Positions 1 to 60,992 are shown, counted from the stretch's first letter. The stretch is DNA of 64,000 bases from an uncultured Verrucomicrobiae bacterium (GCA_963772915.1 CAVYZI010000006.1:370283-434282), one strand, 5' to 3'. Notes: generated by a model from the letters alone, not told the origin. Numbers and translations are program-made.

Positions 1-474
1 CATGTTGCGGGGCGAGACGGAGGAAGTGCAGCGCCGCATCCAGAAAGCGGTGGCCGACCGCGATGGGCCGAGTTGGCCACGAAAAATTTCCGCTTCTTCG
101 ACACCATCTGCGGAGCGACCCAGGAACGACAGGATGCTCTGCGCGAATTGCTGACCGCGAAGATGGAACTGCTCCTCGTCGTCGGCGGCTACAACAGCTC
201 GAACACGTCGCACCTCGCTGAGATGGGCGAGGAGAAGCTGCCCACCTACTTCGTGCTTAACGCCAGCCGGCTGCTCTCGGCCAACGAAATTCTCCATTAC
301 AACCTGCACGAGCGCCGCGAAGTCGTGGCCCACGACTGGTTACCGGAAGCGCCCGTCGTCGTCGGCATCACCGCCGGCGCCTCCTGCCCAAACAATCTCA
401 TCGAGGAAACGCTCATTCGGCTTTTCGAACTGCGCGGGATAGGCATCGACGAGCTCAAGGCCGCCGCTGCCTAA
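1..474 (+). CDS. ispH: 4-hydroxy-3-methylbut-2-enyl diphosphate reductase IspH/LytB, C-terminal part. The 5' end lies outside the window, and there is an apparent frame break near 65-72.
   Basis: Frame 2 from nt 2 reads MLRGETEEVQRRIQKAVADRDGP. Frame 1 (ORF 73..474) then reads FRFFDTICGATQERQDAL...VVGGYNSSNTSHL...ITAGASCP. These segments are contiguous in long-form IspH homologues. Confidence 0.85.
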   Translation, partial: HVAGRDGGSAAPHPESGGRPRWAELATKNFRFFDTICGATQERQDALRELLTAKMELLLVVGGYNSSNTSHLAEMGEEKLPTYFVLNASRLLSANEILHYNLHERREVVAHDWLPEAPVVVGITAGASCPNNLIEETLIRLFELRGIGIDELKAAAA

Positions 475-485
475 CGAGGGCTGGT

Positions 486-960
486 GTGGCTCCGACCGGA
501 AACAAAACCCCTTTCATCCGACCGGTCCGGCTCGAAGATGCCGCCGAGGTCGCAGAGCTTTCCGGCCAGCTCGGGTATCCGGTCAGCGCCAGTGAAATGT
601 CAGCCCGGCTGAGCCGAGCGCTGGCCGATCCCGACTATGTCGTGACGGTGGCGGAAGGCAGCGATGGTTCCTTGCTCGGTTGGATTGGCGCGGAGTACCG
701 CTTCCTTCTCGAAATCGGCGACGAGGTGGAGATTGTTGGGCTGGTCGTCAGGCAGGGAACCCGCCGACTTGGGGTGGGGAAGGTGCTTCTGGCTGCGGCG
801 GAAAAGTTCGCGCGAACTCGAGGGCTCGATTCCATCCGGGTCCGTTCCAACGTCGCGCGGGTCGGAATCGCATCCATTCTACGAACGAATGGGCTACGCC
901 TTGGTCAAGACCCAGCATTGCTACCGCAAGCCGCTGGGGACGCCGGACGAAGCCGCCTAA
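486..960 (+). CDS. GNAT family N-acetyltransferase, with one apparent frame break near 855-865.
   Basis: The sequence IVGLVVRQGTRRLGVGKVLLAAAEKFARTRGLDSIRVRSNVAR carries the acetyl-CoA-binding RxxGxG motif. The C-terminus SHPFYERMGYALVKTQHCYRKPL continues in the frame of ORF 664..960. Confidence 0.75.
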
Positions 961-990
961 CGAGAAGATTGGAAGGCGGCGCCCGATCGC

Positions 991-1099
991 CCGTAACGCA
1001 GGCGTCTCGCCTGCTTGGTCGTGCGGGCTTCCAGCCCGCAGCCTGGAAACGGCAGGCGAGACGCCTGCCGGACGGACAGCCGCGACGGCTGTCTTACGG
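991..1099. repeat. Nested hairpin cluster between the convergent GNAT and HNH genes.
   Basis: GCAGGCGTCTCGCCTGC (998-1014) is the exact reverse complement of GCAGGCGAGACGCCTGC (1052-1068). Each can also fold on itself through a 7-bp stem. There are inner hairpins GCGGGCTTCCAGCCCGC (1023-1039) and ACAGCCGCGACGGCTGT (1077-1093), and an outer pair CCGTAA/TTACGG. Confidence 0.8.
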
Positions 1100-1119
1100 C
1101 GGCTGCGTCGGCCTCCGGC

Positions 1120-1467
1120 CTAACGACTGGCGCGGACAGCGTTCGAACTGCGCATCGCGGCGCGAAAACCGGCCGGTCGGCCCCGAATCCAGGCGGCAAA
1201 CTTCCTGATCTCCGGATGGCTGCGCAGTTTCGAGATGCTGTTAAAGTCGCGCTCGAGTTGTTTCTCGGTCAGCACCTGGTGGATCTGCGAGTGGCAGGGG
1301 CGGCAGAGCCCGATCACTTGCCTGACGACCGCGCGATCAAACTCGCGCTTGTTGCGCTTGTTATGATGGCGGGTGCGCGGGATGAGATGATGGCGCGTCA
1401 GCCGTTCCTCGCGTTCGCAGATCGCGCAGATTCCGTGCACGCCGGAGCATTCCCGCGCGGCCCGCAT
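1120..1467 (-). CDS. Small HNH endonuclease family protein.
   Basis: The arrangement ICAICEREERLTRHHLIPR...LCRPCHSQIH (CxxC...HH...CxxCH) is typical of HNH nucleases. Confidence 0.7.
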   Translation of the reverse strand: MRAARECSGVHGICAICEREERLTRHHLIPRTRHHNKRNKREFDRAVVRQVIGLCRPCHSQIHQVLTEKQLERDFNSISKLRSHPEIRKFAAWIRGRPAGFRAAMRSSNAVRASR

Positions 1468-3594: not shown

Positions 3595-3792
3595 AGGAGA
3601 GCCTTTCAACAAGTGCGGACTGGGCCCGCAAACGTATTAGCGTAGGCAAATTTCTTCCTCCTCGGCAAGACTAAATTCCCGCTTCGACGCGAGGCTGGGA
3701 CATGCGAGCCACTCCTTTCCTGGCCTAACGAAAGGAGAAGCCGGTGAGCCTGACGCGCGCAAATCGCTCCCGCCCTGCGAATTCTTTTTGTC

Positions 3793-5363: not shown

Positions 5364-6640
5364 ATGCCTGCACTCGAAGAAGAACCCGTTCGAAACAAGA
5401 CGTCGCGTCCCGCCAAAGCGGACGTCCTGGTCGATCCCGGTGAACATCCGATCGAAGAAAAGAAGACGCCGTTTTTTCGTCGTCGCCGGTTGGTGATTGG
5501 CGTGGCCATCGTGCTCATTCTCGCGGTCGCTTACGTCGCGACCCTTTTCTTCCACAACCTGACCCACGAGAGCACCGACGACGCTTTCATCGACGCCCAC
5601 ATCATGAGCATCGCACCCAAGATCGCCGGCAAAATCTCGGCCGTGAAGGTGAGGAACAACGAGTTCGTGAAGAAGGGCCAGGTCCTGCTCGAGATCGATC
5701 CGCGTGACGTCGAAGCGATGGTCGCGCAGAAGCGCGCCGCGCTCGAAGTGGCGCAGGCGCATCTCGAGAACGCGAAGATGTCGGCGGAACAGGCCAAGGC
5801 GCACGTCCAGACGTTGCTTGCCGTCTACGCCTCGGCGCAGGCCGAGCACAGCGGCGGCGGCTGCGGATGCCGCAGAAGGTGCAGGGCGACCTCGCGCGGA
5901 ACAAGGATCTGATCGCGAGCGGCGCGATTTCGAAGCAGGATTTCCAACATTCGCAGAGCGACACCGCTTCTTCCGAGGCGACCTTCGAGTCGAAGAAGAA
6001 GCAGCTCGCAGGCGGCGGCAGCATATGCCGAGGAGGGGAAAAAGCAGGCCGGCTCAGCGCAGGCGCAGGTCAGCGCCGCGCAGGCGGAGGTGGCCGAAGC
6101 GCAGGCGGAATTGCAGTCAGGCGGAGCTGCAGAAATCGTACACCACGATCACCGCGCCGGAAGCCGGCCGGGTGACGAACAAATCGATCGAGCCGGGCGA
6201 TTACGTGCAGATCGGCCAGCCGCTTTTCGCGATCGTGCCGCGCAACGTTTGGGTGACGGCGAACTTCAAGGAAACGCAGCTCACCCACATGCGTCCGGGT
6301 CAGCCGGCGGAGGTTGATGTCGACGCCTACCCTGCGCGCTCTTTGCGTGGTCACGTCGACAGCATTCAAGCGGGCAGCGGGGCGCGATTCAGTCTGCTCC
6401 CGCCGGAAAACGCGACCGGTAATTTCGTCAAGGTCGTGCAGCGCGTCCCAGTGAAGATTGTGCTCGATGAACAACCGAACGTGCGGGAAGTCCTCGGTCC
6501 CGGCATGTCGGCCGTGCCGGACGTGAAAGTGACAGGCAGTTTCGGACCCGCGGTCGACGGTCACGATCGTCGCCCTGCTCGCCATCCTGCTCGTGGCCGG
6601 CGCGACCATTTGGTGGCTGGGTAAAATCAAGACTCGTTAG
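5364..6640 (+). pseudogene. emrA: HlyD/EmrA-type efflux periplasmic adaptor subunit, with about 4 frame breaks.
   Basis: The pieces in order are FIDAHIMSIAPKIAGKISAVKVRNNEFVKKGQVLLEIDPRD (frame of 5190), KVQGDLARNKDLIASGAISKQDF (5867 frame), an AQAQVSAAQAEVAEAQAELQ coiled coil (6090 frame), and TTITAPEAGRVTNKSIEPGDYVQIGQPLFAIVP...LPPENATGNFVKVVQRVPVKI (5704 frame). The last segment ends at TAG 6638-6640. Confidence 0.8.
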
Positions 6641-6648
6641 GCAGGATC

Positions 6649-8230
6649 GTGGCTGGCTCGGATTCGCCTAACGCCGCGCCTGAATGGCGGCCAAGTTACA
6701 ACCCGTGGCTGATCGCGGCCGCGGTCATGCTCGCGACTTTCATGGAAGTGCTCGACACTTCGGTCGCGAACGTCTCTCTCCCGCACATTGCCGGGAATCT
6801 CTCTGCGACGACGGATGAAGCGACCTGGGTCCTGACCAGTTACCTGGTCGCCAACGCCATTATTCTTCCGGCGACCAACTGGCTCGGAAATCTGTTTGGC
6901 CGAAAACGCTTCCTCGTTTCCTGCATCGTCCTCTTCACTCTCGCTTCCGCCCTTTGCGGCGCAGCGGGCAGCCTTGGTTTTCTCGTCGTCGCGCGCGTCC
7001 TGCAGGGCGCGGCCGGCGGCGCGCTCCAGCCGATTTCGCAGGCGGTTTTGCTCGAGAGTTTTCCGCCCAAGAAACGCGGCTCGGCCATGGCCGTCTTTGC
7101 CATGGGCGTGGTCGTGGCACCGATCCTCGGGCCAACCTTAGGCGGCTGGATCACCGACAACTACAGTTGGCGCTGGGTCTTTTACATCAATCTCCCGATC
7201 GGTCTCCTCGCCGGCCTGATGGCGAACGCCGTCATCGAGGACCCGCCCTATTTGAAACGGGTGAGCGCAGCCAACATCGACTACCTCGGATTCGGCTTCC
7301 TCGCCCTTTGGCTCGCGACTCTGCAGTTCGTGCTCGATAAGGGGCAGGAGCTGGACTGGTTCGGCTCGCACACGATCGCGTGGTGCGTCACGATCTCGGT
7401 GACGGCCTTTCTCGCCTTCGTCGTGAGGGAACTGACCGCCAGCCGGCCGCTGGTCGATCTGCGTGTCCTGAAAAACCGCAATCTCGCGGTCGGCTGCGCC
7501 CTCGTCGCAATCCTCGGCGCGCTCCTGTATGGGACGATTGCGGTCCTCCCGCTCTTCATGCAAAACCTGCTCCGTTACACCGCGCTCGATGCCGGTCTGG
7601 CCTTGAGCCCGCGTGGGGTGGGCGCGTTTTTTGCCACGATTGTGGTCGGCCGGCTGGTCGGGAAAATCAGCAACCGCATTCTGATTACGATCGGCTTTCT
7701 CGGACTCGCCTATTCCTCGTTCCTCTTCGGGAACATCAACCTCAGCATCGGGATGGTCAGCATCGTCTGGCCGACGATCCTGAGCGGCATCTCGATCAGT
7801 TTCATCTTCGTCCCGCTCGCCACCTCCGCCATGGGCACTCTCAAGCAGGATCAGATCGGCAACGCCAGCGGGCTTTTTAATCTCATGCGCAACCTCGGCG
7901 GGAGCATCGGGATCGCCGGCCTGACGACTCTTGTGGCCCGCGGCGCGCAATCGAACCAGGCCGCGTTCGTTAGCCATTTCTCGCCATACAGTCCGGTCTA
8001 CCAGCAGAAGCTCGCCGCCATCCAGCACGGTCTCGCAGATGCATGAAGGCGCCTGGCGCGCGGCGCAGCAGGCGCCGCAGGTGCTCTATCGGATTCTTGG
8101 TCAGCAGTCGTTGCTCGTGACCTACGCGCACAACTTCCGGCTCTTCGGCATCCTCTGTCTGGTCACGACGCCGCTCGTTTTCTTCTTCAAGAAAGTGCGG
8201 AAAGGGAAGGCGCCGGCCGGCGTGCATTAG
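6649..8230 (+). CDS. emrB: DHA2-family MFS efflux permease, EmrB/QacA type, with one frame break near 8040.
   Basis: The sequence LDTSVANVSLPHIAGNL...RVLQGAAGGALQP and a multi-TM profile match this family. The C-terminal 60 aa (QSLLVTYAHNFRLFGILCLVTTPLVFFFKK) continue in the frame of ORF 7931..8230. Confidence 0.85.
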
Positions 8231-8285: not shown

Positions 8286-8288
8286 TCG

Positions 8289-8765
8289 TTAGGCGATTTC
8301 CGCCAGGGCCGCGGCGACGGCCGCCGGCAACTGCCGTGGGCCACCGCCACCGAGCTGGGCGTCGACCGTTTCCAGGCGGCGGATCAGATCGAGCACATCG
8401 CGCCGCGCCATCGGTCCGCCGGCCGCGGCACAAAAATGGGTCCGGCAACCGAAGGGCCGGTCCGGGTAGATCAGGCAATTGCCGGAAGCGTGATCGAGGA
8501 GGGGACAGGCGCCGCCAACGTCGTTAGGCAACTTCTTCCGTCCGGTCGCCCGCAAGGCTCGGGCCGCGAGGAGCGCTTCGCCTTTCGTCAGGTAGGGCGT
8601 CAGGCCGGTGAGCTTGAACTGACAGCACTCGGTCCGCCGCACGCATTGGCGCTCGATCGGCCGTTGCGCAAGCTCGGCGTAAACGCGCCGCACCTCTTCG
8701 ATTGCGGAATGGGAAGAGTCGGTGGCGGAAAACGGTCGGCGCTTCATCGGCCAGGAAGGTGACAC
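8289..8765 (-). CDS. YkgJ-family cysteine-cluster (CxxCxxCC) protein.
   Basis: The cysteine pattern CVRRTECCQFKL...GGACPLLDHASGNCLIYPDRPFGCRTHFC matches this family. Confidence 0.75.
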   Translation of the reverse strand: MSPSWPMKRRPFSATDSSHSAIEEVRRVYAELAQRPIERQCVRRTECCQFKLTGLTPYLTKGEALLAARALRATGRKKLPNDVGGACPLLDHASGNCLIYPDRPFGCRTHFCAAAGGPMARRDVLDLIRRLETVDAQLGGGGPRQLPAAVAAALAEIA

Positions 8766-18654: not shown

Positions 18655-18753
18655 CGGGCTTGGAAGAGGATCCCCGGTTGTGGCTAGCCTCACGGCTTTG
18701 CCGTCTATCCCGCGGCAATTCGTCTTGTTATCGTTAGGCGCGGAAGACCGGTT

Positions 18754-26025: not shown

Positions 26026-26083
26026 CAACCATACATCTGAGGTCGTCCGTCAACCATTTTGAATGAAGTTATTGGCATGTAAC

Positions 26084-39587: not shown

Positions 39588-39593
39588 GCCGGG

Positions 39594-40409
39594 ATGAGCG
39601 CAGCGGCCGCCAGCGCCGGAGGCAAACGCTCCGGCTTTTTTCTTTTGCCCACCGCCACTCTCTGGCAGCGCGAGATCGTGCGCTTTTACCGCCAGCGTAA
39701 TCGGATCATCGGCGCGCTCCTTTCCCCGCTTGTTTTCTGGTTCGTTATCGGGTCGGGAATCGGGTCTTCCTTTCGCACCGGCTCCTCGCCTAACGGCGCC
39801 AGCTACCTCGAGTATTTCTATCCGGGCACGCTCATCCTCATCATGCTTTTCACCGCCATCTTCTCGACCATCTCGATCATTGAGGATCGGCGGGAAGGTT
39901 TCCTCCAATCCGTTCTCGTCGCGCCGATCTCGCCCGGGAGCATCGTTTGTGGAAAAATTCTCGGCGGAACGACCCTCGCGCTTTTGCAGGGGCTGATCTT
40001 TCTTTTGCTCGCGCCCTTCGTCGGGATCCACATCTCGCCCGAGCGGCTCCTGGTTTGTCTCGGGACGCTTTTCGTGGTCGGCTTTGGTCTCACGGGGCTC
40101 GGTTTTCTCGTTGCCTGGCCGATGGAATCGACCCAGGGCTTCCACGCCATCATGAACGTCTTTCTCATTCCGCTCTGGCTCATGTCGGGCGCGCTTTTTC
40201 CCGCCACCAACCCGCATTCCTGGATCTTCTGGGCGGTCCACCTCAACCCCGTCACTTACGGCGTCGCGGCCATCCGGCGCGCCCTTTACGCAGGCGATCC
40301 GGGCGTCCTCAATCTGCCGAGCTTCGCCCTCTCGATCGGCGTGTCGTTAGGCTTCGGGCTCGTCATGTACGTCGTCGCCTATCTGCTCGTGCAGCGAAAA
40401 TCTTCATGA
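39594..40409 (+). CDS. ABC-2 type transporter permease, NodJ/DrrB-like.
   Basis: The sequence reads [27 protein letters not shown] and the protein has 6 TM helices. There is no adjacent ATPase gene. Confidence 0.8.
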
Positions 40410-42681: not shown

Positions 42682-44369
42682 CTACTTCTTCTGCGACATC
42701 ATCTGGTCGCGTTTCGCTTTGAACTCAGAATCGGGCAGCCACGTCGGATAACGATTGCCGTTCGCGACCTGGTAGCCGACGTCGAAGAGGAGCCGCATGT
42801 CTTGGACCGCACCGGATAAGTCCCACTTCGGGTTCACTTCGTCGGAGACCTGGTGGTAATGATGCAGGGTGTAGTCGTCGCTTTTCTTTCTGTCCGTAGT
42901 CAGCCGGCTGGCCAATGTAGTCCTTTGGTTTGCTCCCGATGTAGAGCGAGGGCACGCCGACTTTCGCGAACTCGAAATTGATCGGCCCGGAAGAAGGTGC
43001 CTTTCTCCGGTTCGCTGTTCGGCTTCGCCATCCGACCGGCCTCCTTCGCGTCTTCCGCGAGAAGATCGTCGAGGGTGGAATTGCCAGCCGCGATGTCTTC
43101 GATGTCGTGCGTTTTCCCCCAGGCGTTGACGCCATCGATGTTGATGTCGGCCAGGGTGTGATCGAGCGGGTAGAGCGGATGCTCGGCGTAATATTTCGCG
43201 CCTAACAATCCCGCTTCCTCCGCGGTCGTGGCCATGAAAAGGATGCTGCGCGGCGGCGGCTGCGGGAGTTTGGTAAAAGCCTGCGCGATCTCGAGGATGG
43301 AGGCGACGCCGGAGGCGTTGTCGAGAGCGCCGTTGTAGATCTGGTCGCCTTTCAGCCTGGTGTCGCGGCCGAGGTGATCCCAGTGCGCGCTGTAGATAAT
43401 GTATTCATCCTTCTTCTCCGGATCGCTTCCTTCGAGCTTCCCGACCACGTTATGCGATTTGAAATGCGTGATCTTGTTCTGGAGCGCAAAACTGGCTTTC
43501 GCGCCTAACGACACCGGCTTGAAGTCCTTGCTCAGGGCCGCCTTCTTCAACTCGTCGTAGTTTTTCCCGGCGGCCGCGAAAAGCTTGCGCGCCGTCTCGA
43601 GCGTGATCCAGGAGCGAACGCCGAGCGTGCTCATGTTTTTGTCCGGGGCGTCGATCACGAAATTGGTTTTCGCGTTGCTGTTCTCGACCACCGACCACGG
43701 ATAGGCAGCGGGGATCGTCTCGTGCACGATGACCGCGGCGGCGGCGCCTTTCTCGGCCGCGATCTCGTATTTGTAGCTCCAACGGCCGTAGTAGGTCATC
43801 GCTTTTCCTTTAAACATTTTGTCGTCGAGCTTCGACGGATCGTCGGGCGAGGGGATGGGCGGATCGTTGATGAGAAAGACGACCGTTTTGCCTTTTACGT
43901 CGACGCCTTTGAAATCGTCCCAGCCATATTCGGGCGCGACGACGCCGTAGCCGACGAAGACCATCTCGGAATCGTCGACCTTGATCTCAGGCGTGATCTG
44001 TTGGGTGAAAGCGACGAACTCGTTCGGCGAATGGAGTTCCATCTTCTGGTCGCCGATGGTAAAGGTCGCACTCGGGGTGGTGAGGATACCGGCAAGCGGG
44101 ACTTCCTGGGTGTAGGTGCCGTCTGGGTTGCCGGGTTTCAGTCCGAGCGCCTTGAACTGCGCCGTGATGTATTGGACCGATTCCTCTTCGCCCTTCGAGC
44201 CGGGGGCGCGGCCTTCAAACTTATCCGAGCCGAGGACTTTGATGTGCTGGAGGAGGCCGGCCGCGTCGATTGCGTTCTGGGCTTCCTTGGGGGGCTCGTT
44301 CGGGGTCGGTGGCAGCGCGAGAAGTGAAAGCGCGGAGAAGGCGAGCGAGAGGTGGACGAGTCGTTTCAT
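42682..44369 (-). pseudogene. M28 family aminopeptidase, with 2 frame breaks near the 3' end (about 42990 and 42905).
   Basis: The signal peptide is [20 protein letters not shown]. Conserved segments are YSAHWDHLG and [18 protein letters not shown]. The C-terminus HHYHQVSDEV...TWLPDSEFK is in ORF 42682..42915. Confidence 0.8.
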
Positions 44370-44513: not shown

Positions 44514-46679
44514 CTATGGTTTGGGCGGCTTTGGCGGGGCCGCACCCGGCTTGCTCTCGGCCGGCGGCTGGCTCTCCGCTTTCGCCGGGGCCTCGATGCC
44601 TAACGTTTTCAAGTAGGGCTGGATCGAACGGTCGCGGCCGAGGAAGTTGTGGATCGAGACATCGATGTCGCGCGAGCCGCCCGGTTCGTAAATCTCCTTG
44701 CGCAGCTTCATCCCGGCATTCTTGTCGAGGAATCCGTTAGGCGCTTTCTGGAAGACGGTCGCCATGTCGGCTGCGATCGCGTCCGCCCAGGCGTAGCCGT
44801 AGTAGCCGGCGTCGTAGCCGGCGAGATGTCCGAAGAAGGCGACGAAGGCGGTGTCGTTGTCGACCGGGAAAAAATCCTTTTTGAAGATCGGATTCGAGAT
44901 GGCGACGCAATCGTAGGGCTGACCCGCGGGATGGACATCGTGCAGGGTGAGATCGATGTCGGCAAAGGTGAACTGCCGCCGGTAAAAGACGCCGACGGTG
45001 GCGAGCTTCGCTTCCTTCATTTTCGCGATCAGCTCGGCCGGGATTTTCTTCGACGGATCGCGATAATCGGCCGCGAAAGTGTCGAGCACTTTCTTGTCCC
45101 AGACCCAGTTTTGCAGCATCTGCGAGGGCGCCTCGACGAAATCCGCCGGCACACTCGTGCCGGAGAACCGCACATATTTGGCCTTCGTGACGATGGCGTG
45201 GAGGGCGTGGCCGAATTCATGGAAGAGCGTCTCGACATCCTGATGGCTGAGGAGCGACGGCTTGTCCTTGGCCGGCGGCGGGAAGTTACAAATGAGGGCG
45301 ACGGTCGGGCGCTGGTAATTTCCGTCGGGCAACAATTTCCCCGGGATAATCGGGAACTCGGCGAAGTGATTGAACTTCCCGTCGCGCGGGAACATGTCGA
45401 GGTAGAACATGCCTAACGGCTGCCCGCTGGCCGCGTCCGTCACGATGTAGAGCTGGAGATCGTCGATCCATTTATAGGGCGCGATGATCTTGGTAAATTT
45501 CAGCCCGAAGATGCTCTGGTAGATGTCGAACATCCCGTCGAGCACGCGCTGGAAAGGGAAGTAAACCCGGAGCGCGTCGGTATCGACGGTGTACTTGTCC
45601 TTCTTGAATTCGTTCTGGAAATAGCGCCAGTCCCAGATGTTGATCTGGGCGTTGGAATCTTTCGTTTCCGCGACCTTCAGCTTGCGCAGCTCCGCGACCT
45701 CGGCGTCGAACTTCGGTTGAATCCCGGCGACGAGATCGTGGATGAAGGTCCTGGCCGCGGCCCCGCTCTTGGCCATTTTGATTTCGGTCTGGAAATCGTC
45801 CCACGATTTGTAGCCGAGCTTGAGCGCGATCTGGTTGCGATGGGCGAGGATGTCGTTCAGGACCGGGACGTTTTTGTCCCGCGCGAGACTGAAACGGACC
45901 TCGTAAAGATGTTTGCGGGTTTCCTCCTTCTTCGCCGTTTCCTCGACCGTGTTGTATTGGAAAGTCACGTTCCCGAGAATGGTGTAGGAATCGGCGCCGG
46001 TCTTAACCCCGGGCGAATCGAGAATCGTGTCCGGCACTCCTTCCAGCTCAGCCTTGGTGAAAACGATCGGCGCTTTCACGGCCACGATGTTGGCCTCGAA
46101 ATCGGTCTCGAGTTTGGCCAGTTCCTTGCGCAGCTTCTCGACCTCGGCCCGCTTTTCGGGCGGAAGAGCGAGCCCGGCCCGGCGATAATCCCGCAGGGTG
46201 TGTTCGAGCAGAAGCTTGTCCTCGCCCTTCAGCTCCGGCTTGGTGTCGGCGTAAGTCTTCACCGCCTTGTAAACGTCCTCGCGATAATCGATCCCGACCG
46301 CCCAATCCTGGAAGACCTTGATCGCTTTCTCGGCCGCATCGCGCATCGCGGCCTCCTGGTTGGTCTGTTGGATGACGGTTGTTTTTGAAAAGGCGATTTG
46401 AGCTTCGTTCTGGAGGTTGTCGAGCGCGCCGACCGTGCTCGCAAAGGTTACCTTGGCGAGGTCCTGTTTCCCGATCACGTCGAGGGCGGCGTTCGCCTTC
46501 GCGATCGCGGTATTGACGTTGTCCTGCACCGCGATCGGCGTCTTCGGCCAATCGGGAATGGTCAGGACCTCGTGCGCCTTCTTGGCCGCGGCCTGGAAAT
46601 CGGCCAGACTTTTGACAGCCTCGGCGTGGAGAGAAAGGGGGAGAGCGAGGCAGAGACTAACGAGCAGGAAGTTTTTCAT
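44514..46679 (-). CDS. M3 family metallopeptidase, Dcp/oligopeptidase A-like, secreted.
   Basis: The zinc motif is TLFHEFGHALH. A signal peptide, MKNFLLVSLCLALPLSLHA, is present. The 721-aa ORF is intact. Confidence 0.9.
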   Translation of the reverse strand: MKNFLLVSLCLALPLSLHAEAVKSLADFQAAAKKAHEVLTIPDWPKTPIAVQDNVNTAIAKANAALDVIGKQDLAKVTFASTVGALDNLQNEAQIAFSKTTVIQQTNQEAAMRDAAEKAIKVFQDWAVGIDYREDVYKAVKTYADTKPELKGEDKLLLEHTLRDYRRAGLALPPEKRAEVEKLRKELAKLETDFEANIVAVKAPIVFTKAELEGVPDTILDSPGVKTGADSYTILGNVTFQYNTVEETAKKEETRKHLYEVRFSLARDKNVPVLNDILAHRNQIALKLGYKSWDDFQTEIKMAKSGAAARTFIHDLVAGIQPKFDAEVAELRKLKVAETKDSNAQINIWDWRYFQNEFKKDKYTVDTDALRVYFPFQRVLDGMFDIYQSIFGLKFTKIIAPYKWIDDLQLYIVTDAASGQPLGMFYLDMFPRDGKFNHFAEFPIIPGKLLPDGNYQRPTVALICNFPPPAKDKPSLLSHQDVETLFHEFGHALHAIVTKAKYVRFSGTSVPADFVEAPSQMLQNWVWDKKVLDTFAADYRDPSKKIPAELIAKMKEAKLATVGVFYRRQFTFADIDLTLHDVHPAGQPYDCVAISNPIFKKDFFPVDNDTAFVAFFGHLAGYDAGYYGYAWADAIAADMATVFQKAPNGFLDKNAGMKLRKEIYEPGGSRDIDVSIHNFLGRDRSIQPYLKTLGIEAPAKAESQPPAESKPGAAPPKPPKP

Positions 46680-48337: not shown

Positions 48338-51123
48338 ATGCTGACGGAAGACGGAAGTTGCACGAAGTGCGGGGCGGTGCTGGTCGCGGACGATCCGAAG
48401 CAAGGCTGCCCGGCCTGTCTTTTTGAGGAAGGGCTGACTCTACTCGCGGGCGAACGACGATCGCCCGCAACGCACAAGGCAACTGGGCGATTTCGGCGAC
48501 TACGAACTGGAGGAGGAAATCGGGCGGGGCGGTCAGGGGGTTGTTTACCGCGCCAGGCAGAAAAGTCTCAATCGCACCGTCGCGCTCAAGGTGGTCGGCC
48601 TCGGCCCCTGGGCGACGGAAGCGCACCTGAAGCGCTTCCGCCTCGAAGCCGAGTCGGCCGCGGGCCTGGATCATCCCGGGATTGTTCCGATTTACGAAGT
48701 GGGGGAGCGGGAAGGCTTTTGCTATTTCAGCATGAAGTTGATGGAGGGCGGCCCGCTGGACGCAGTCGTTAGGCGCGAGCCGCTTCCTCTGCGGCAGGCC
48801 GTGGAATTGACCGCGAAAATGGCGCGCAGCGTGCACTACGCGCACGAGCGCGGCATTCTGCATCGCGATATCAAGCCGGGGAACGTCTTGCTCGATGCGA
48901 AGGGCGACCCGCATCTGACCGATTTCGGGCTGGCGCGGCTGTTTGAGACTGAGAGCACGGTCACGCGCACAATGGAGTTTTTGGGAACGCCGAGCTACAT
49001 CGCACCTGAACAGACCGGCGGCGATCAAAGCGCGCCGCCGACGCGCGCGACCGATGTTTACGGAGTCGGTGCGGTTTTCTATCAACTGCTCACCGGCCAT
49101 CCGCCTTTTGTTGGCCGAACCGCTTTTGAAACTGTCCAGCTCGTGCTCGGCGCCGAGCCGCGGCCGCCTCGGCTCTACAATCCGAATGTCGATCGCGATC
49201 TCGCCACGATCTGCCTGAAATGTCTGGAGAAGGATCCGGAGCGGCGTTACCCATCAGCCCTCGCCCTGGCGGAGGACCTCGAGCGCTGGCTGCGGCAGGA
49301 ACCGATTCTGGCCCGGCGCACGGGAGTTTTTTCCCGTGGCCGGAAATGGGTCCGGCGCAATGCCACCGCGACGGCTCTGGCGGCCTCGTTAGTCGCGCTC
49401 GTCGCCGCCGTCGGCACGATCGTCTGGAAAAGCGAATCCGCCGGCCGACCGATGCCGACCGGGATCGCCGTCCTGCCCTTTCAAAACCTGAGCGCGCAAA
49501 AAGAGAACGCCTGGCTGGCCGATGGCGTGCAGGACGACATCCTGACCAAGCTCGCCAAGATCGCCGGGCTCAAGGTCATCAGCCGCACGAGCGTGATGCA
49601 ATATCGCGGGGCGCAAAACACGCGCGAGATCGGCGAAGCGCTGCGCGTCTCGCATGTGCTGGAAGGAAGCGTGCGCCGGGAGCATGGCCGCATTCACTTG
49701 AACGCGCAGCTCATCGATACCCGCACCGATACGCATGTCTGGGCGGAGGAATTCGATCGCGAGGCGAGCGAGATGTTCCCTCTTCAGGGTGAGATCGCGC
49801 GCAAAGTCGCGGAGAAACTCCACGTCAAAATCTCACCCGCGGAAGAACTGGCGATTGCGCGACCGCCCACGGTTGACCTCGCGGCCTTCGATCTCTACGC
49901 GCGCGCCGAAAATCTTCTCATCACGGCAAACTTCAATGGCAACGGGAAAGCGAACCTCCTCCAGGCCGCCGCGCTCCTGCAGCAGGCCGCCGCCCTGGAT
50001 CCGTCGTTTTTCCAGGCCTTCTGCGAACTCGGCTACACCCACGACACGCTCTATTTCTTCGGCTTCGATCATACCCCGGCCCGACTTGCAATGGCGGAAG
50101 CTGCCATCGCGGCAGCCTTTCGTCTTCGGCCCGACGCCGGGTGAAGCGCATTTGGCCCGAGCCGGAAATCTTTATCGAGGGTCATCTCGATTACGAGGGC
50201 GCGCTCGCCGAGCTGGCGATTGCCCGCCGCACCCTGCCTAACGATCACCGCGTTTTCGCGCTCGAGGGCTACATCGAGCGCCGCCGGGGCCGGCAGGAAG
50301 AGGCACTCGTTAGTCTGGAGCGCGCGGCCGACCTCGACCCGCGCAACAGTTTCATCCTCCAGCAGATCGCGATGAGCTACGAGGATCTGCGGCGCTATCC
50401 CGCGGCGGAGGCGGCGCTGGAGCGTGCGCGCGCGATCGATCCCGACGATCTCGACGTCAAGGTCGCGCGGGCAAACCTGGACCTGATTTGGAAAGCCGAT
50501 ACCGGGCCGTTGCACCAACTGCTGGATGAAATTCGCGCGAAAAATCCCGCCGCCATCCCGGGCGTGTTCGATAGCCTTCTCACCTGCGCGCTGGCCGAGC
50601 GGGACACGGCGGCGGCAAAGAACGCTTTATCCATCTGGGGAAGGATACTTTCGGAAACGATGCCGTCAGATTTCCGCGCAGCTTCGGCGACGCTCTGATT
50701 GCGCGGATGACGAACGACGCGACCGGGGCGCGGGATTCTCTTCTGGCAGCGCGGGCGGCGCAGGAAAAAATCGTTCGGGCTCAGCCGGGTTACGGTCCGC
50801 CGCTTTGCGTCCTCGGTTTAATCGATGCCGGTCTCGGGCGGAAAGAGGAAGCGCTGCGCGAAGGTCGACGCGCGGTCGAGCTGCTTCCGCGGGAAAAAGA
50901 CGCCTCCAATGGCGCGCACATGATCGAATACCTGGCCATGATCGCGGCCTGGGTAGGGGAGAAAGACCTGGCCTGCGCGCAGCTCGCAGTCGCGGTTCGT
51001 CCGCCGATCGGCTTGAGTTATGGCCAGCTAAAGTTGCTGCCGTTCTGGGATCCCTTGCGCGGCGATCCGCGTTTCGAGAAGCTCGTCGTCTCCCTCGCGC
51101 CGGACGAAGCCACCCGACCGTGA
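48338..51123 (+). pseudogene. Serine/threonine protein kinase with an N-terminal zinc ribbon, a TM segment, a TolB-N-like domain and TPR repeats. There are at least 3 frame breaks.
   Basis: The zinc ribbon is CTKCG..x13..CPAC. Kinase motifs are GRGGQGVVYRA, HRDIKPGNVLLD, DFGLARL and GTPSYIAPEQ. TPR-like helices continue in ORFs 50141 and 50707. Confidence 0.85.
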
Positions 51124-53728: not shown

Positions 53729-54980
53729 CTATTCGTAGCGCAGCGCCGTCACGGGATCGAGCCGGGAGGCGGTCCAGGCCGGTGCGATCCCGGAGACCAA
53801 ACCCGTCACGACCGAGACGATCATGCTCGCGATGACGAGGCTGAAGGAAAAGCGGATCGGGAAGGAAGGAAACGCTTTCGCCATTCCGAAACACATCAGG
53901 TAAGCGACGATCAAACCGATCAAGCCGCCAACCAGACAGAGCGCGGTCGATTCGATCAGGAATTGGAGAAGGATGGTGCGCCGCCGCGCGCCTAACGCCT
54001 TCCGCGTGCCGATCTCTTTCGTCCGCTCTTTCACGCTCACGAAGGTGATGTTCATGATCCCGATCGCGCCCACGAAAAGCGAGAGCCCGGTGATGAAAAG
54101 CCCGGCGATCGCGATCGTCCCTTTGACCGCGTCGAGCGTGCTCTTGAAAGCCTGCTGCTCGTTGATGCTGAAGTCGTCGCGCTTCTCCGGCGGGAGGGAG
54201 CGCAGTCGGCGCATGATCCCGGTCAGCTCGTCGCGCGCGTCGGCCATGTGGGTTTTGTCGCGCACTTTCACCCGCACGTCGGCTTCGCTTTTCGCGCTGA
54301 AATATTTTTTGAAGGCCGGCAGCGGGATGACCACGATGGAATCGAGACTGAAAAGCCCGAGGAAACGTGCCCTGGCGCGAGAGTGTCCCGAGAACGCGGA
54401 AGGCGTGGCCGTTGATCAGCACTCTTTTGTCGAGCGCGCTGCGCCCGGCGAAAAGCGCGTCGGCCACGTCGTAACCGACGACGCAGACCTCCTCGCCGCC
54501 GCGCGTTTCGATTTCGTTGAAGAAACGGCCCTCGCTGCAATCGAGCGTCGAGATGACGGCGTAATCGGCCGTCGTCCCGAGGATGTAAACATTATCCACC
54601 TTGTTTTCGCCCGCCTTCACGGCGCGGAGCAGGCTCATCGTCGGGACCGCGAGCATAAGGTTGGAGTTGGGCGTGCGCTCGATCGTGCGGTTGATTTTGT
54701 CGGCGTATTCGGTCCGGATTTTTTTCCGGTCGCGGTAGTTCCACCAATCGTTCATCCGCGTCCAGGGCCGCTGTTCGATATAAAGCACGTCGTCGCCGAT
54801 GACCGACATGCTTTTGTCGAACCCGGTCGAGATCCCGTTGATCGCCGTCCCCATGAGGGTGACGGCGACGATCCCAATGATGACCCCGAGCGCGGTCAGG
54901 ATGGAGCGCGTTTTGTTCGCCGCCATTTGCGCGGCGGCGATCTTCCAGCTCTCGGTCAGCTCGTAGAGAAGGCGCTTCAT
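53729..54980 (-). CDS. ABC transporter permease, MacB/FtsX family, with one frame break near 54350.
   Basis: The N-terminus NKTRSILTALGVIIGIVAV and the MacB periplasmic domain are in the 53700..54980 frame. The FtsX domain ERTKEIGTRKALGARRRTILLQFLIES...RLDPVTALRYE is in ORF 53729..54334. Confidence 0.85.
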
Positions 54981-58273: not shown

Positions 58274-58305
58274 AAACGTTCGTGGCTCGTTAGGCTGGGT
58301 GAGCC

Positions 58306-58641
58306 TCATTTCCCGCCCGTCACGGTGTAACCCTCGGCGCGCAGATCCTGCGCCAGTTCCATTTCCATCTGCACCGCGGCCTCGAACGGCATCGGGTTGA
58401 GGTGCGCGTAAAGCTCAGGCAGGAGGCGCACCCCGTATTTCTCCACCACCCACGAGGATTTGTATCCGTGCCTGTGGTTTTCAAAACGATGCTCAACCGG
58501 AAGCCCGGTCATCCCGACATAAACACACGGCTTGGCCGGGTCTCGTTTCGGATTCAGGCGCACGATCGACGGATGCTTCAGCACCGCCGGGTCCAGCAGA
58601 ATCACATAAACGTTGTGATGAAACTTTTCCGCCTCCGGCAC
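58306..58641 (-). CDS. Hypothetical small protein, possibly GIY-YIG-like.
   Basis: The pattern NVYVILLD...CVYVGMTG...RFENHRHG resembles the GIY-YIG core. The assignment is uncertain. Confidence 0.4.
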   Translation of the reverse strand: MPEAEKFHHNVYVILLDPAVLKHPSIVRLNPKRDPAKPCVYVGMTGLPVEHRFENHRHGYKSSWVVEKYGVRLLPELYAHLNPMPFEAAVQMEMELAQDLRAEGYTVTGGK

Positions 58642-58740
58642 GGGCGCAGCATAGACCGCCGTGCAAGACGCGGCTAGGCGCAGCCGGGGCGGGAGCTGTT
58701 CTTCTCCGTTCGCAACAAGAGCGACCCGATTTTTCAGTCG

Positions 58741-58989
58741 TTAGACGACGCGACCGCCATGCCCTTGCCCGTGATCGCCTTGCGCGATTCCGCGGATGGA
58801 CAAATCTTCGTCGAGATCCGGCCAATGAAGGCCGAAGGGAGAAATCTCGATGTGATTCAGCTGCTCGGGAGTGCCTCGGGCAAGACGAGGGTTCTCTGCC
58901 GCCAGAAACCGGAGCGTCGCCCCGGTCTGGAGAACGATGACGATCTGGCCATCGCGAAAAACCGCTGAACGAGGTTGATCAATCGGCAT
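58741..58989 (-). CDS. DUF2442 domain protein.
   Basis: The C-terminus IEISPFGLHWPDLDEDLSIRGI is the DUF2442 signature. The start is taken at ATG 58989. Confidence 0.6.
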   Translation of the reverse strand: MPIDQPRSAVFRDGQIVIVLQTGATLRFLAAENPRLARGTPEQLNHIEISPFGLHWPDLDEDLSIRGIAQGDHGQGHGGRVV

Positions 58990-59177
58990 CGACCGATCCT
59001 CTCCGAACGGACCATGAAAAGCGATCAGATTATCTTGGGCGACCGGTGCCAGGGCCTCTCGAGCGAACTCGGGCAGTTGGCGCGCGATCTCGCACAAATT
59101 GACAGGTCGGAGATTTGGCAGTGTTTGAATTTGCCGAGGCCCGCTGTGTCCGGCAGAGTGCACTTCCCAATAATCAG

Positions 59178-60992
59178 ATGGAAAAACTTACCAGAGTAGA
59201 TTTTGCGGTCGGGATCGGCGGCGAGAACGGTCAGGGCATCGCCTCCACGGGCGACATTCTCGCCCGCATCTTTGCCCGGCGCGGGCTCCACCTCAACGCC
59301 TACAACGCCTACCAGTCGATCATCCGCGGCGGGCACACTTTCCTCACCATTCGCGCGAGCGACGCGCCCGTCACCAACATGGGGGACAAGATCGACGTCT
59401 TCATCCCGCTCAACCAGGACACGATGGATCGCCACCTGCGTCTGTTGAAATCCGGCGCCTGCGCGATTTACGACGCCGAAAAAGTCACGCCCGGCCAGGC
59501 CGCCGACGGCGTCCAGCTTTGCCCGATGCCGATGAAGGAGCTGACCAAGGGCAACAAGCTGGCGGTCAACACCGCCGCGCTCGGCGCCGCGCTCCAGTTG
59601 CTCGGGATCGAATCGGAACCGCTCGAATCGGTCGTCGCCCGGCAGTTCAAGAAGAAGGGCGACGAGGTCGTGGCCGGGAACATCGCCGTCGCCCGGGCCG
59701 GTTACGAATATGCGGCGCAGAATTTCAAAGCCTTTCCGTGGAAGGCGCCGGCGGGCGGGAAACCGCTCGGCATCGTCACCGGCAACCAGGCGACCGCCAT
59801 GGGCGGCGCGGCGGCGGGTGTGAAATTTTATGCGGCCTATCCGATGAGCCCGTCCACCGGCGTGCTCATGTGGATGGCGGCGCACGCGCGCCAGCTCGGC
59901 ATCATGGTCCGGCAGGTCGAGGACGAGATCGGCGTCATGAACATGGTCATCGGCGCGGCCCACACCGGTTGCCGGGCGATGTGCGCGACCAGCGGCGGCG
60001 GCTTTGCCCTCATGACCGAAGCCGTCGGCATGGCGGGCATGATCGAGACGCCGATTGTCTGCGTCGATGTGCAACGCGCCGGCCCGGCCACCGGCGTGCC
60101 GACCAAGACCGAGCAGGGCGATCTCTGGCAGGCGCTCGGCGCCGGGCAGGGCGATTACCCGCGCCTGATCGTGGCCCCGACCAGCCAGCTCGATTTGTTC
60201 CGGACGATCCCGGAACTGTTCAACCTTTGCGACAAATACCAGTGCCCCGGCCTCGTCCTGGCCGACCTCCTCATCTCCGAGGGCACCACCAGCATTGATC
60301 CCGACGACCTCGACTTCAACGTCACGATCGACCGCGGCGAACTGATTTTGCCTAACGGAAACGGAGACGGCGCAAGTCCCGGCAGCGGCTACGGCGACAA
60401 AGCCTACCTGCGTTTCAAGAACACCGAGAGCGGCATCTCCCCGCGCGCCGTGCCCGGCGTTCCCGGTCACATCTTCACCGCCGCGACCGACGAGCACGAC
60501 GAAGACGGCACCCTCGTCAGCGACGAGTTCACCAACCCGAACATCCGCCGCATGATGGTCGAGAAACGCGGCCGCAAAATGAAGGCGGCCATCAACGACA
60601 TCGCCCCGCCCAAGCTCTTCGGCCCCGAAAACGCCGCCGTCACTCTGGTCGGCTGGGGTTCAACCGATGGCGTGATTCGCGAAGCGGTCGAGAAACTCGC
60701 GGGCGAAGAGGGGATCGTGGCCAATCATCTTCACATCAAATGGATCGTCCCGTTCCACGCCGCCGAGATCAGCCGCATTCTTGCGCAGAGCAAGCAAGTC
60801 ATCATCGTCGAGAACAGCTACAGCGGCCAGTTCGCCCGCTACCTCCGGAGCGAGACCGGCTTCGACGCCCACGGCCACATCCGCAAATACGACGGCGAAC
60901 CCTTCATGCCCCATCACATCGTCGAAGCAGTCAAAGACCAGCTGGCCGGCAAAACAAAACTCTCCGTCCCCATCCACGAAGTGCTCGCATGA
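59178..60992 (+). CDS. korA: 2-oxoacid:ferredoxin (acceptor) oxidoreductase subunit alpha, with fused gamma and alpha domains.
   Basis: The conserved segments are IGGENGQGIASTGDILARIF, YNAYQSIIRGGH, GNQATAMGGAAAGVKFYAAYPMSPST and VDVQRAGPATGVPTKTEQGDL. Confidence 0.9.
   Translation: MEKLTRVDFAVGIGGENGQGIASTGDILARIFARRGLHLNAYNAYQSIIRGGHTFLTIRASDAPVTNMGDKIDVFIPLNQDTMDRHLRLLKSGACAIYDAEKVTPGQAADGVQLCPMPMKELTKGNKLAVNTAALGAALQLLGIESEPLESVVARQFKKKGDEVVAGNIAVARAGYEYAAQNFKAFPWKAPAGGKPLGIVTGNQATAMGGAAAGVKFYAAYPMSPSTGVLMWMAAHARQLGIMVRQVEDEIGVMNMVIGAAHTGCRAMCATSGGGFALMTEAVGMAGMIETPIVCVDVQRAGPATGVPTKTEQGDLWQALGAGQGDYPRLIVAPTSQLDLFRTIPELFNLCDKYQCPGLVLADLLISEGTTSIDPDDLDFNVTIDRGELILPNGNGDGASPGSGYGDKAYLRFKNTESGISPRAVPGVPGHIFTAATDEHDEDGTLVSDEFTNPNIRRMMVEKRGRKMKAAINDIAPPKLFGPENAAVTLVGWGSTDGVIREAVEKLAGEEGIVANHLHIKWIVPFHAAEISRILAQSKQVIIVENSYSGQFARYLRSETGFDAHGHIRKYDGEPFMPHHIVEAVKDQLAGKTKLSVPIHEVLA

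Follow-up and report, generated by a model that had tools for sequence, protein, structure and literature searches.

A lineage-specific genome word resembling DNA uptake sequences in an uncultured clade of soil Chthoniobacterales

The 64-kb stretch of DNA analyzed here (the window) derives from an uncultured soil member of the Chthoniobacterales (phylum Verrucomicrobiota) and contains 37 exact copies of GCCTAACG/CGTTAGGC, 22 on the plus strand and 15 on the minus strand. An earlier note on this DNA had reported at least 37 copies, and each one is present at the position and on the strand that it gave. In its fuller form, the word is 9 to 10 bases long (YGCCTAACGA) and occurs on both strands about once per 1 to 2 kb in the genome of the window and in its relatives.

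Many copies lie within genes, where they are read in several frames. Read as CCT-AAC (Pro-Asn), the word occurs in sense orientation in a GNAT acetyltransferase ORF at 486-1208 (1118..1125, +), an MFS transporter gene at 6649-8046 (6666..6673, +), the minus-strand gene at 8289-8765 (8522..8529, -), an apiosidase-like gene (21185..21192, +; kept in the related locus L081), a cysteine desulfurase gene (23087..23094, -), and xseA (35287..35294, -). The same reading is found in glgB (31707..31714, +; common to L081, L084, and L085), an ABC-2 permease gene (39788..39795, +; common to L085), purH (41458..41465, +), an M3 peptidase gene (44735..44742, -), a TPR protein gene (50236..50243, +), and the gene for a 2-oxoacid:acceptor oxidoreductase alpha subunit (60350..60357, +). 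CTA-ACG (Leu-Thr) is used in sense in the GNAT ORF (955..962, +) and in xseA (34724..34731, -), and GTT-AGG (Val-Arg) results from antisense copies in xseA (34591..34598, +; common to L081, L082, and L085), a Ser/Thr kinase gene (48767..48774, -), and a minus-strand MacB-type permease gene (53990..53997, +). TTA-GGC (Leu-Gly) appears in the cysteine desulfurase gene (22800..22807, +, antisense), a hexapeptide-repeat (cysE-like) gene (24236..24243, +), a hypothetical gene at 37685-38542 (38103..38110, -), the ABC-2 permease gene (40345..40352, -), purH (41667..41674, -), an M28 peptidase gene (43503..43510, +), and twice in the M3 peptidase gene (44598..44605 and 45411..45418, both +).

Elsewhere, the word supplies stop codons: its TAA terminates an ispH/LytB-type gene ending at 474 (469..476, +) and the gene at 8289-8765 (8287..8294, -), and its antisense TAG terminates an AraC-type regulator gene at 38586-39587 (39582..39589, -). 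Three overlapping copies, (GCCTAAC)3 followed by G, occupy 22049..22070 (+) at the 3' end of a SprT-like gene (22058-22702, -) and provide its stop codon as an antisense TAG; two of these units are present in L081. Intergenic copies lie upstream of a Ku gene at 3793-4629 (3723..3730, +), between HlyD-type and MFS genes (6635..6642, -, paired divergently with the 6666 copy), at 18732..18739 (-), at 37653..37660 (+; kept in L081 despite differing flanks on both sides), and just downstream of an ABC-2 gene at 57185-58273 (58288..58295, -), and one further copy lies in the 3' region of a frameshifted ruvB gene (36073..36080, -; kept in L081).

A 6.5-kb insertion at 24936..31435, carrying two IS110-family transposase genes and one DDE transposase gene, contains no copy of the word, against about 4 expected at the density of the window. 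This insertion is missing from L081 by blastn, and the gene order in L082, L087, and L088, in which glgB adjoins the cysE-like gene, likewise lacks it. The window also includes a separate MITE-like palindromic element without the word. Of genes that might relate to competence (comEC, comEA, dprA, or type IV pilus genes), it has only a generic prepilin-like one, at 33789-34511.

The 37 copies compare with 2.5, 1.2, 1.2, and 1.6 expected in the window under Markov models of orders 0, 1, 2, and 3 and with a mean of 1.20 (maximum, 3) in 100 dinucleotide-preserving shuffles, and the excess is therefore 15- to 30-fold; the earlier note was right that the word is in excess but, at about 10-fold, set the size too low. 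Among coding copies, 26 are observed versus 0.79 ± 0.89 (maximum, 5) in 1,000 synonymous-codon shuffles, which hold protein sequences and codon usage fixed. The note had proposed a Markov model of maximal order as a check; at that order, the expectation in the window (34.6) nearly equals the observed count, only because the word's own subwords, GCCTAAC (43 in the window), CCTAACG (41), and CCTAAC (51), nearly all sit inside the word. The maximal-order model absorbs the signal and is invalid as a refutation test here.

In the window, A follows the word in 25 of the 37 copies, matching the two-thirds noted earlier, and a pyrimidine precedes it in 31. The 171 kb of pooled sequence contain 86 occurrences of GCCTAACGA (0.93 expected), whereas all 27 single-mismatch 9-mers together occur 112 times, with about 35 of these expected by chance. 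Several variants are themselves abundant, as in the pooled counts for GCCTAACAA (17 versus 0.4 expected) and GACTAACGA (13 versus 0.4), and GCGCCTAACAAT, described previously as a one-off variant, is indeed present at 23797, 37562, and 43198. A profile so rich in perfect copies has been described as typical of the uptake signal sequences (USS) and DNA uptake sequences (DUS) and as differing from what regulatory binding sites show (PMC1626085).

At least seven related Chthoniobacterales genomes, from both Illumina short-read and long-read assemblies and with GC contents of 56 to 62%, carry the word at 0.4 to 1.0 per kb. Copy numbers are 21 in 21 kb (L081), 9 in 9.8 kb (L082), 5 in 12 kb (L084), 21 in 21 kb (L085), 14 in 21 kb (L087), 18 in 21 kb (L088), and 10 in 21 kb (L089), and there are 19 in 20.6 kb in L090, a region without synteny to the window that shares a contig with L086 at a distance of about 150 kb. 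Copies are conserved at orthologous sites more often than ordinary 8-mers are: 21/23 versus 62% of all 8-mers in L081 (P = 0.002), 11/16 versus 23% in L087, 10/16 versus 21% in L088, and 6/11 versus 18% in L089. In the outgroups L002, L004, and L005, 0 to 1 of the window copies are conserved. A sister lineage (L001, L004, and L020) has an unrelated word, AAGATCGACA(W), at 0.8 to 2 per kb on both strands, which is conserved within that lineage (5/9 versus 12%); GCCTAACGA and AAGATCGACA have no obvious common core. L005 and L011 have weaker candidate variants, YCCTAACGA and GGTAAACGA, respectively.

Codon preference gives way to the word. Of the Leu codons, 2% are TTA, yet 8 of the 39 TTA codons fall in the word; among Pro-Asn dicodons, CCTAAC is the most frequent. 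In both the cysE-like gene (VTLGA) and purH (RTLGI), the peptide is invariant, the outgroups use CTN-GGN, and TTA-GGC is confined to word-bearing genomes: the Leu codon of the cysE-like gene is CTT, CTC, or CTG in relatives outside the word clade, and that of purH is CTG, CTC, or CTT in outgroups. The word is thus made in situ through point substitution, and some of the synonymous changes take two steps (CTC to TTA, for example). These synonymous rare-codon changes and the conservation of orthologous sites bear out the earlier claim of selection on the DNA word itself, and the codon readings that the note gave gene by gene (TTA-GGC, CTA-ACG, GTT-AGG, and CCT-AAC) are correct.

The surroundings of the copies are unrelated: over 60 flanking bases, mean pairwise identity is 0.28 (maximum, 0.47), compared with 0.25 at random sites. 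A search for longer repeat families containing the word found none, so the word is free-standing, as first described, and the longer mobile repeat that the earlier note had named as contrary evidence does not surround the copies. Orientation is balanced in the window (22:15), in the pooled set (61:53), in six syntenic loci sharing one orientation (39:38), and in the independent locus L090 (11:8), and within genes of the window sense and antisense copies number 14 and 12. No relation of copies to promoters or gene ends and no regular spacing were found; distances between copies are roughly exponential, and just one inverted pair is closely spaced. Density in the window is 0.48 per kb in coding and about 0.7 to 1.2 per kb in noncoding DNA, and the same noncoding enrichment alongside many coding copies has been reported for USS and DUS (PMC1626085).

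Several known systems invite comparison. The DUS of the Neisseriaceae, dialects included (Frye et al. 2013, PMC3630211), are likewise short, nonpalindromic words found about once per kb on both strands, within and between genes, and recognized as the most overrepresented 9- to 12-mers; they are strongly conserved within a lineage, with other variants on other branches of the phylogeny, and in them, too, one frame of either strand holds a stop codon, so that the positions open to the word are restricted. The present word differs in its unrelated sequence without a CTG core, in the lack of inverted pairs acting as terminators, in belonging to uncultured Verrucomicrobiota, where it is known from sequence alone, and in that the sister lineage, instead of a dialect differing by one to three bases, has an unrelated word. 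DUS dialects have CTG in common, and USS types have GCGGT in common. With the Pasteurellaceae USS, both Hin-type and Apl-type, the word shares a 9-bp core present roughly once per kb without orientation bias, a majority of coding copies despite the higher noncoding density, perfect copies that rival or outnumber single-mismatch copies, an origin by mutation rather than copying, individual sites that are stable across species, and types specific to subclades (Redfield et al. 2006, PMC1626085). Unlike USS, to which it is likened here by such features, it is unrelated in sequence and has no AT-rich flanking segments, with information only at the -1 pyrimidine and the +1 A (and +2 C/G). HIP1 (GCGATCGC), the cyanobacterial highly iterated palindrome, whose function is still debated, is an octamer that similarly occurs about once per kb, pervades coding regions, is lineage restricted, and is conserved beyond expectation, but it is a perfect palindrome overlapping methyltransferase sites, whereas the word is asymmetric. 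REP/BIME and MITE-type repeats also have many copies per genome but are longer, palindromic, mostly intergenic, and spread by copying, in contrast to the unrelated flanks and in situ origin of the word.

These comparisons support a resemblance to uptake sequences together with selection on the word, and all of the in silico hallmarks of uptake sequences that we examined are present. USS-type AT-rich flanks and DUS-type inverted pairs are absent, however, and this, like the lack of a common core between the two main words, speaks against the uptake reading. The earlier likening to DUS and USS on density and distribution is strengthened by sharing across the clade, the bare IS insertion, and the different word of the sister lineage. 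As the best explanation, we consider it about an even bet (probability, roughly 0.5) that YGCCTAACGA, a lineage-specific genome word, is produced by uptake-sequence-like drive, in which a sequence-specific process favoring word-bearing DNA would both create and maintain it. The discriminating step would be the uptake machinery of competent cells, preferentially binding and importing fragments that contain the word; imported fragments would then recombine and replace the homologous chromosomal segment, and word-creating point mutations would therefore spread while word-destroying ones were removed. Over time, the word would accumulate on both strands wherever coding allows but not in recently arrived foreign DNA. 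This scheme presupposes that the bacteria are naturally transformable and have a surface receptor, probably a pilin-like protein, that reads the word. Uptake sequences are known only from relatives of Neisseria and Haemophilus, and we know of no experimental uptake or natural transformation in any Verrucomicrobia. Our literature searches, in line with the note's statement that it knew of no described equivalent for such genomes, found no published description of the word.

Conservation above background and overridden codon preference would be equally expected if each site served a function inside the cell. The word might be bound by an abundant intracellular protein, such as a nucleoid-organizing or chromosome maintenance factor, and be kept by purifying selection for the benefit of the cell; its presence throughout core genes fits this, and differing protein specificities could give differing lineage words. 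We nonetheless judge this unlikely, as the copies bear no relation to promoters or gene ends and are not regularly spaced, and we know of no precedent among nucleoid-type proteins for a 90-fold-enriched asymmetric 9-mer at 1 per kb. Nor would such a site readily explain the bare IS insertion, although that region may simply be young. Moreover, the consensus of known nucleoid proteins and regulators is relaxed, and their perfect sites do not exceed near-sites (PMC1626085), unlike the 86 perfect copies here against about 77 single-mismatch copies above chance.

A nonpalindromic 8- to 9-mer inside genes, specific to a lineage as Chi sequences are and absent from an IS insertion, could also be a self-recognition signal for recombination and repair or for a defense nuclease (Chi-like, with RecBCD/AddAB, or a marker of own DNA), selected for protection or repair of the chromosome. 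Chi and the FtsK-orienting KOPS (5- to 8-mers) are similarly overrepresented, tolerated in genes, taxon specific, and asymmetric, but their copies are strongly biased toward the direction of replication (in Escherichia coli, about 75% or more are co-oriented with it), and both are enriched only a few-fold. The word, enriched 30- to 90-fold, is without polarity in the window, the syntenic loci, and the independent locus, in agreement with the earlier argument from strand balance, and this explanation seems improbable. Still more doubtful is a functionless by-product of sequence-specific mutation or repair bias, such as a very-short-patch (VSP)-like mismatch endonuclease with a methyltransferase converting near-matches. 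It would accommodate the origin by point substitution, even the two-step change from CTC to TTA, and HIP1 shows that hyperabundant words without known function can exist; however, all 8 to 9 positions would have to be read, known VSP-type effects are only a few-fold, and near-match substrates should be depleted, whereas several single-mismatch variants are enriched 20- to 40-fold. The window does appear to come from a long-read metagenome assembly and has frameshifted genes, which would suit an error of assembly or basecalling where a motif is methylated, and remnants of MITEs were considered as well. Such an artifact or dispersed mobile repeat fragment is essentially refuted by the unrelated flanks, with no longer repeat family carrying the word, and by independent short-read assemblies in which matching orthologous sites carry it (L082, GCA_036490855.1; L085, GCA_036494545.1; and the JGI contigs L083 and L086).

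Apart from the IS insertion, the window includes a 10-kb word-free stretch (8530-18731), which counts against the proposed drive; a gap this long has a chance probability of about 0.06. This stretch is not obviously foreign, since homologues of its cupredoxin gene occur in the clade.

A two-strand search of the window for the octamer GCCTAACG recovers 37 copies, exactly the 22 forward and 15 reverse occurrences that an earlier note, made by eye, had counted as a genome word resembling the uptake sequences of Neisseriaceae (DUS) and Pasteurellaceae (USS). At 0.58 copies per kb, GCCTAACG ranks fourth among all 8-mers of the window, and its extended form, GCCTAACGA, heads the list of 9-mers at 25 copies. 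Shuffling the window with dinucleotides preserved leaves a mean of 1.20 copies of the octamer and never more than 3, and Markov models of orders 0, 1, 2, and 3 predict 2.5, 1.2, 1.2, and 1.6 copies, respectively. When synonymous codons are shuffled across all predicted genes, such that neither the protein sequences nor the overall codon usage changes, the expectation for the 26 coding copies is 0.79 ± 0.89, and the highest count among 1000 trials is 5. The 8-mer is enriched 15- to 30-fold and the 9-mer about 90-fold. The maximal-order Markov model that the earlier note proposed as a refutation test predicts 34.6 copies, an observed/expected ratio near 1, because the sub-words GCCTAAC, CCTAACG, and CCTAAC occur almost exclusively within the word itself; this model was dropped as an invalid null, and low-order Markov models, dinucleotide shuffles, and synonymous-codon shuffles were adopted in its place.

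The motif is one position longer on each side than the octamer: A follows in 25 of 37 copies, or the two-thirds previously estimated, and C or T precedes in 31 of 37, with flank composition beyond positions -1 to +2 at background level. The description of the motif as a free-standing word holds as well, in that the 60-base flanks of its copies have a mean identity of 0.28 (maximum, 0.47), against 0.25 for random sites, and none of the repeat families of at least 24 nt in the window includes it; an explanation as a dispersed repeat is ruled out by the unrelated flanks. Scans of the window for Rfam families and tRNAs returned no RNA family and no tRNA, and an analysis of spacing detected no excess of close inverted pairs of the word. 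Its sole tandem arrangement in the window, according to a tandem-repeat scan, is the triple at 22049, an overlapping (GCCTAAC)n at the end of a SprT-like gene that has three units in the window (22049-22070) and two in the closest relative, L081 (17149-17163), constituting a small copy-number polymorphism.

On a gene map derived from GC3 periodicity, with most genes checked against Pfam and NCBIfam, 26 of the 37 copies lie inside coding sequence, 4 over a stop codon, and 7 between genes. Word density is greater in non-coding DNA, though many copies are coding. Copies within genes are split 14:12 between sense and antisense and occupy every stop-free frame, as had been claimed: CCT-AAC (Pro-Asn) 12 times, TTA-GGC (Leu-Gly) 8 times, GTT-AGG (Val-Arg) 4 times, and CTA-ACG (Leu-Thr) twice. 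In the four stop-overlapping cases (469, 8287, 22056/22063, and 39582), the gene terminates at the TAA or TAG within the word. The associated claim that rare codons are forced into these genes is borne out by leucine codons, only 2% of which are TTA, with 8 of the 39 TTA codons falling within the word. TTAGGC is the third commonest Leu-Gly dicodon, and CCTAAC is the commonest Pro-Asn dicodon, yet CCT makes up just 10% of proline codons. One copy of the word is situated 63 bp upstream of a Ku-domain gene (3793-4629, + strand), of the type involved in bacterial non-homologous end joining.

The glgB product of the window has its best similarity (71-81% identity) to those of MAGs labelled Chthoniobacterales, Verrucomicrobiota, or “Candidatus Udaeobacter,” and relatives were compared through pieces of about 20 kb surrounding xseA homologues. 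Every relative whose xseA is 75-100% identical to that of the window is dense in the word, at 0.4-1.0 copies per kb: L081 (93% nucleotide identity to the window) has 21 copies in 21 kb, L082 has 9 in 9.8 kb, L084 has 5 in 12 kb, L085 (GC content of 57%; the same sequence as L086) has 21 in 21 kb, L087 has 14 in 21 kb, L088 (from a 3.58-Mb contig) has 18 in 21 kb, and L089 (from a 4.02-Mb contig) has 10 in 21 kb. A further piece, L090, which comes from the 1.285-Mb contig that also carries L086, at a distance of about 150 kb, and is non-syntenic with the window, contains 19 copies in 20.6 kb (11:8, a ratio belonging to this one independent locus). The word is a genome-wide property of the clade. 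An artefact of basecalling or assembly is excluded because the word is present in assemblies from different projects, based on both short and long reads. Pooling 171 kb from seven genomes yields 114 copies of GCCTAACG and 86 of GCCTAACGA, the latter against 0.93 expected. All 27 kinds of single-mismatch 9-mers together amount to 112 copies (chance expectation, about 35), and enrichment is greatest for GCCTAACAA (17 versus 0.4 expected) and GACTAACGA (13 versus 0.4).

Codons at word sites were mapped onto orthologues. Within the invariant VTLGA of the cysE-like gene, leucine is encoded by CTT, CTC, or CTG outside the word clade and in L082, and the window and L081 read ACG-TTA-GGC; within the invariant RTLGI of purH, leucine is CTG, CTC, or CTT in outgroups, CTA in L085, and TTA in the window and L081. 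Other copies lie at variable protein positions, with amino-acid changes. The word is thus made in situ by point substitution, at times through two synonymous steps to a rare codon. Once present, sites persist: L081 retains 21 of 23 word sites, compared with 62% of ordinary 8-mers (P = 0.002), and the two exceptions are a triple repeat shortened by one unit and a deletion of one base. Retention remains at 11/16 sites in L087 (82% nucleotide identity; ordinary 8-mers, 23%), 10/16 in L088 (80% identity; 21%), and 6/11 in L089 (79% identity; 18%), and it falls to 0-1 of 4-10 sites in the outgroups L002, L004, and L005 (73-77% identity; 10-14%). Bases adjoining conserved words vary, as at 37653 and 41667. 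Positions also turn over, with L085 and L088 holding many copies that have no counterpart in the window, and the word-making force is therefore still active in each lineage.

A screen for the most over-represented 8-mers of each fetched locus revealed a different word in a sister lineage. The Chthoniobacterales MAG contigs L001, L004, and L020, whose glgB is 74-75% identical to that of the window, carry (A)AGATCGACA(W) at about 1-2 copies per kb; GATCGAC occurs 17 times in 8 kb of L001 and 26 times in 22 kb of L004, half on each strand. This second word is absent from the clade of the window, with only one AGATCGACA in the window itself. Between L004 and L001, 5 of 9 sites of this word are conserved, against 12% expected, and it is not conserved at orthologous sites in other lineages. 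Word types follow lineages, with GCCTAACGA accompanying an xseA 75-100% identical to that of the window and AAGATCGACA found in L001, L004, and L020 (kinship here being judged from sequence identity). Two weak candidates, YCCTAACGA in L005 (5 copies in 22 kb versus 0.24 expected) and GGTAAACGA in L011 (5 copies in 14 kb versus 0.10 expected), have a 3' AACGA in common and, small as their numbers are, could possibly be further variants in more distant Chthoniobacterales. The other Chthoniobacterales loci fetched, including those of “Ca. Udaeobacter” and Chthoniobacter, and all non-Verrucomicrobia loci fetched have no comparable dispersed word.

The longest word-free intervals of the window are 8530-18731 and 24244-31706. 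The second of these encompasses a 6.5-kb segment (24936-31435) with no copies of the word that is a composite insertion, missing from the 93%-identical L081 and also from L082, L087, and L088, since glgB adjoins the cysE-like gene in these three. It contains two IS110-family transposase genes (26084-27532 and 28278-29447, both on the - strand) and a DDE transposase fragment (29957-30487), and it is the one case of its kind. That every word-free stretch is foreign is true of this insertion and does not hold for 8530-18731, which is not demonstrably foreign and has a cupredoxin gene with Chthoniobacterales homologues at 64-83% identity; a gap as long as this would arise among 37 randomly placed points with a probability of about 0.06. 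The last 3.6 kb of the window (60358-64000), with a lower GC content (0.57) and no copies of the word, may be accessory DNA, and an open reading frame within it (62011-62790) weakly matches the QatA anti-phage ATPase.

The absence of strand skew, as previously asserted, applies to the window (22:15), to the pooled loci (61:53), and to six loci sharing gene order and orientation (39:38). Testing co-orientation locally, i.e., in the 64-kb window, the six syntenic loci, and one independent locus, gave no skew, and polar signals of the Chi or KOPS type are rejected for this reason. The proposed resemblance to DUS and USS extends to every sequence-testable property on a list taken from Redfield et al. 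2006 (PMC1626085) and Frye et al. 2013 (PMC3630211). Like those sequences, the word occurs about once per kb, is over-represented by one to two orders of magnitude, is unbiased in orientation, and has many copies in genes with a higher density outside them, its placement being limited by the stop codon that it contains. The consensus is so strong that perfect copies rival those with a single mismatch, chance allowed for, which is the measure applied to USS (PMC1626085). Other shared features are an origin by mutation and not by copying, long-term stability of individual sites beyond the neutral expectation, the linkage of word types to subclades, and, in the one case of the 6.5-kb IS insertion, depletion in mobile DNA. 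In sequence, however, the word is similar to neither: read directly, GCCTAACGA is devoid of the CTG core that is essential to DUS (PMC3630211), the Neisseriaceae form of which is GCCGTCTGAA, and inverted-pair terminators are absent, and its core differs from that of the Pasteurellaceae USS, which ends in GCGGT and is accompanied by two AT-rich flanking segments that are absent here. If it is an uptake sequence, it would be an independent invention. Unlike REP elements and MITEs, its copies share no longer palindromic unit, and unlike HIP1-type palindromes, it is not its own reverse complement, as GCCTAACG differs from CGTTAGGC.

From this pattern, we consider the chances to be roughly even that a bias in DNA uptake is the mechanism behind the word. 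The fuller reading, to which we assign a probability of about 0.45, is that Chthoniobacterales undergo sequence-selective natural transformation and have evolved uptake sequences of their own, independently of Neisseriaceae and Pasteurellaceae, with the unrelated words of sister lineages (GCCTAACGA, AAGATCGACA, and possibly GGTAAACGA) acting as barriers to gene flow. The word could also be bound by an abundant intracellular protein, in which case it would indicate an unknown and very abundant DNA-binding system, or a non-polar signal by which a nuclease recognizes self DNA. A pure repair bias, on the other hand, is an unlikely source because near-match variants are enriched and not depleted. 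Competence genes are nearly universal, and those related to competence in the window of about 64 kb and the 20-kb pieces of relatives come down to a single generic prepilin-like gene. This gene (33789-34511, + strand), located between glgB and xseA, encodes 240 amino acids with only an N-terminal cleavage/methylation motif and a weak match to “Verru_Chthon cassette protein D”; the same arrangement recurs in most fetched loci of the clade (L082 to L087 and L089). Population genomics has been used to argue for widespread competence among abundant soil bacteria, in a study that does not cover the present clade (PMC7305173). Our survey of the literature on Verrucomicrobia and Chthoniobacter found no account of either uptake sequences or hyper-abundant words, and that on uptake sequences outside the two classical families gave no prior description either, in agreement with the earlier note, which knew of no described equivalent.

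To our knowledge, uptake sequences have been recognized for about 40 years in only two families of host-associated Proteobacteria, and the reason for their existence is debated, being viewed either as a by-product of biased uptake machinery or as an adaptation promoting sex between kin. Among the uncultured Verrucomicrobia of soils, Chthoniobacterales rank with the most abundant, and we know of no cultured member of the word clade. A transformation system in these bacteria would be the third known to use uptake sequences and the first from a phylum that is environmental and uncultured, making the phenomenon a general one that reaches beyond two host-associated families into free-living and very abundant soil bacteria. 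It would also supply a marker of natural transformation, readable from sequence alone, for organisms that cannot be cultured, and the unrelated words of sister lineages would represent a natural experiment on changes in uptake specificity and the isolation of gene pools. On extrapolating the local density to a genome of roughly 4 Mb, the 9-mer would be reshaping the codon usage of each genome at about 2,000-4,000 positions. In practice, the word could help in designing DNA for possible uptake by these bacteria, which would offer a route to genetic tools, and in assigning metagenomic contigs to the clade.

Several features of the window are separate from the word. Frameshift-broken genes occupy 8810-11450 and 36012-37037, including a TraB/GumN gene split at 9301/9304, an M13 peptidase gene in at least two pieces, and a truncated ruvB; these are either pseudogenes or indel errors of long-read metagenomes, and the frameshifts fit a long-read metagenome assembly. 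Gene fragmentation of a like kind occurs in L081. Within the cysteine desulfurase gene (22689-23969, - strand) is an in-frame palindromic, MITE/REP-like element of about 115-135 bp (23286-23421), whose long hairpin (GGTAGGGCGAGACTCTGTCGAGCC...GGCTCGACAGAGTCTCGCCCTACC) has a predicted fold of -89 kcal/mol. It adds 39 amino acids relative to the L082 orthologue, its DNA is absent from L081, and it resembles the Rickettsia palindromic elements, which insert into open reading frames. Copies or pieces of the same family, mostly at gene ends, are present at 22606-22657, 35931-35982, 56859-56910, 37741-37768, and 42629-42656; none of these further copies, with cores GCGCGTCCCTCCGGAGGGAC and GGCTCGACAGAGTCTCGCCCCACC, contains GCCTAACG. 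Two initial candidates for dispersed words, AATGACGA in L087 and the window and CTCAACAC in L010, proved to be tandem heptamer arrays of local extent. The intergenic stretch 37057-37155 of the window, with ruvB on one side and an anti-sigma-factor-kinase-like gene on the other, holds (AATGACG)n arrays in inverted orientation, and a similar array lies at a different intergenic position in L087 (15503-15700).
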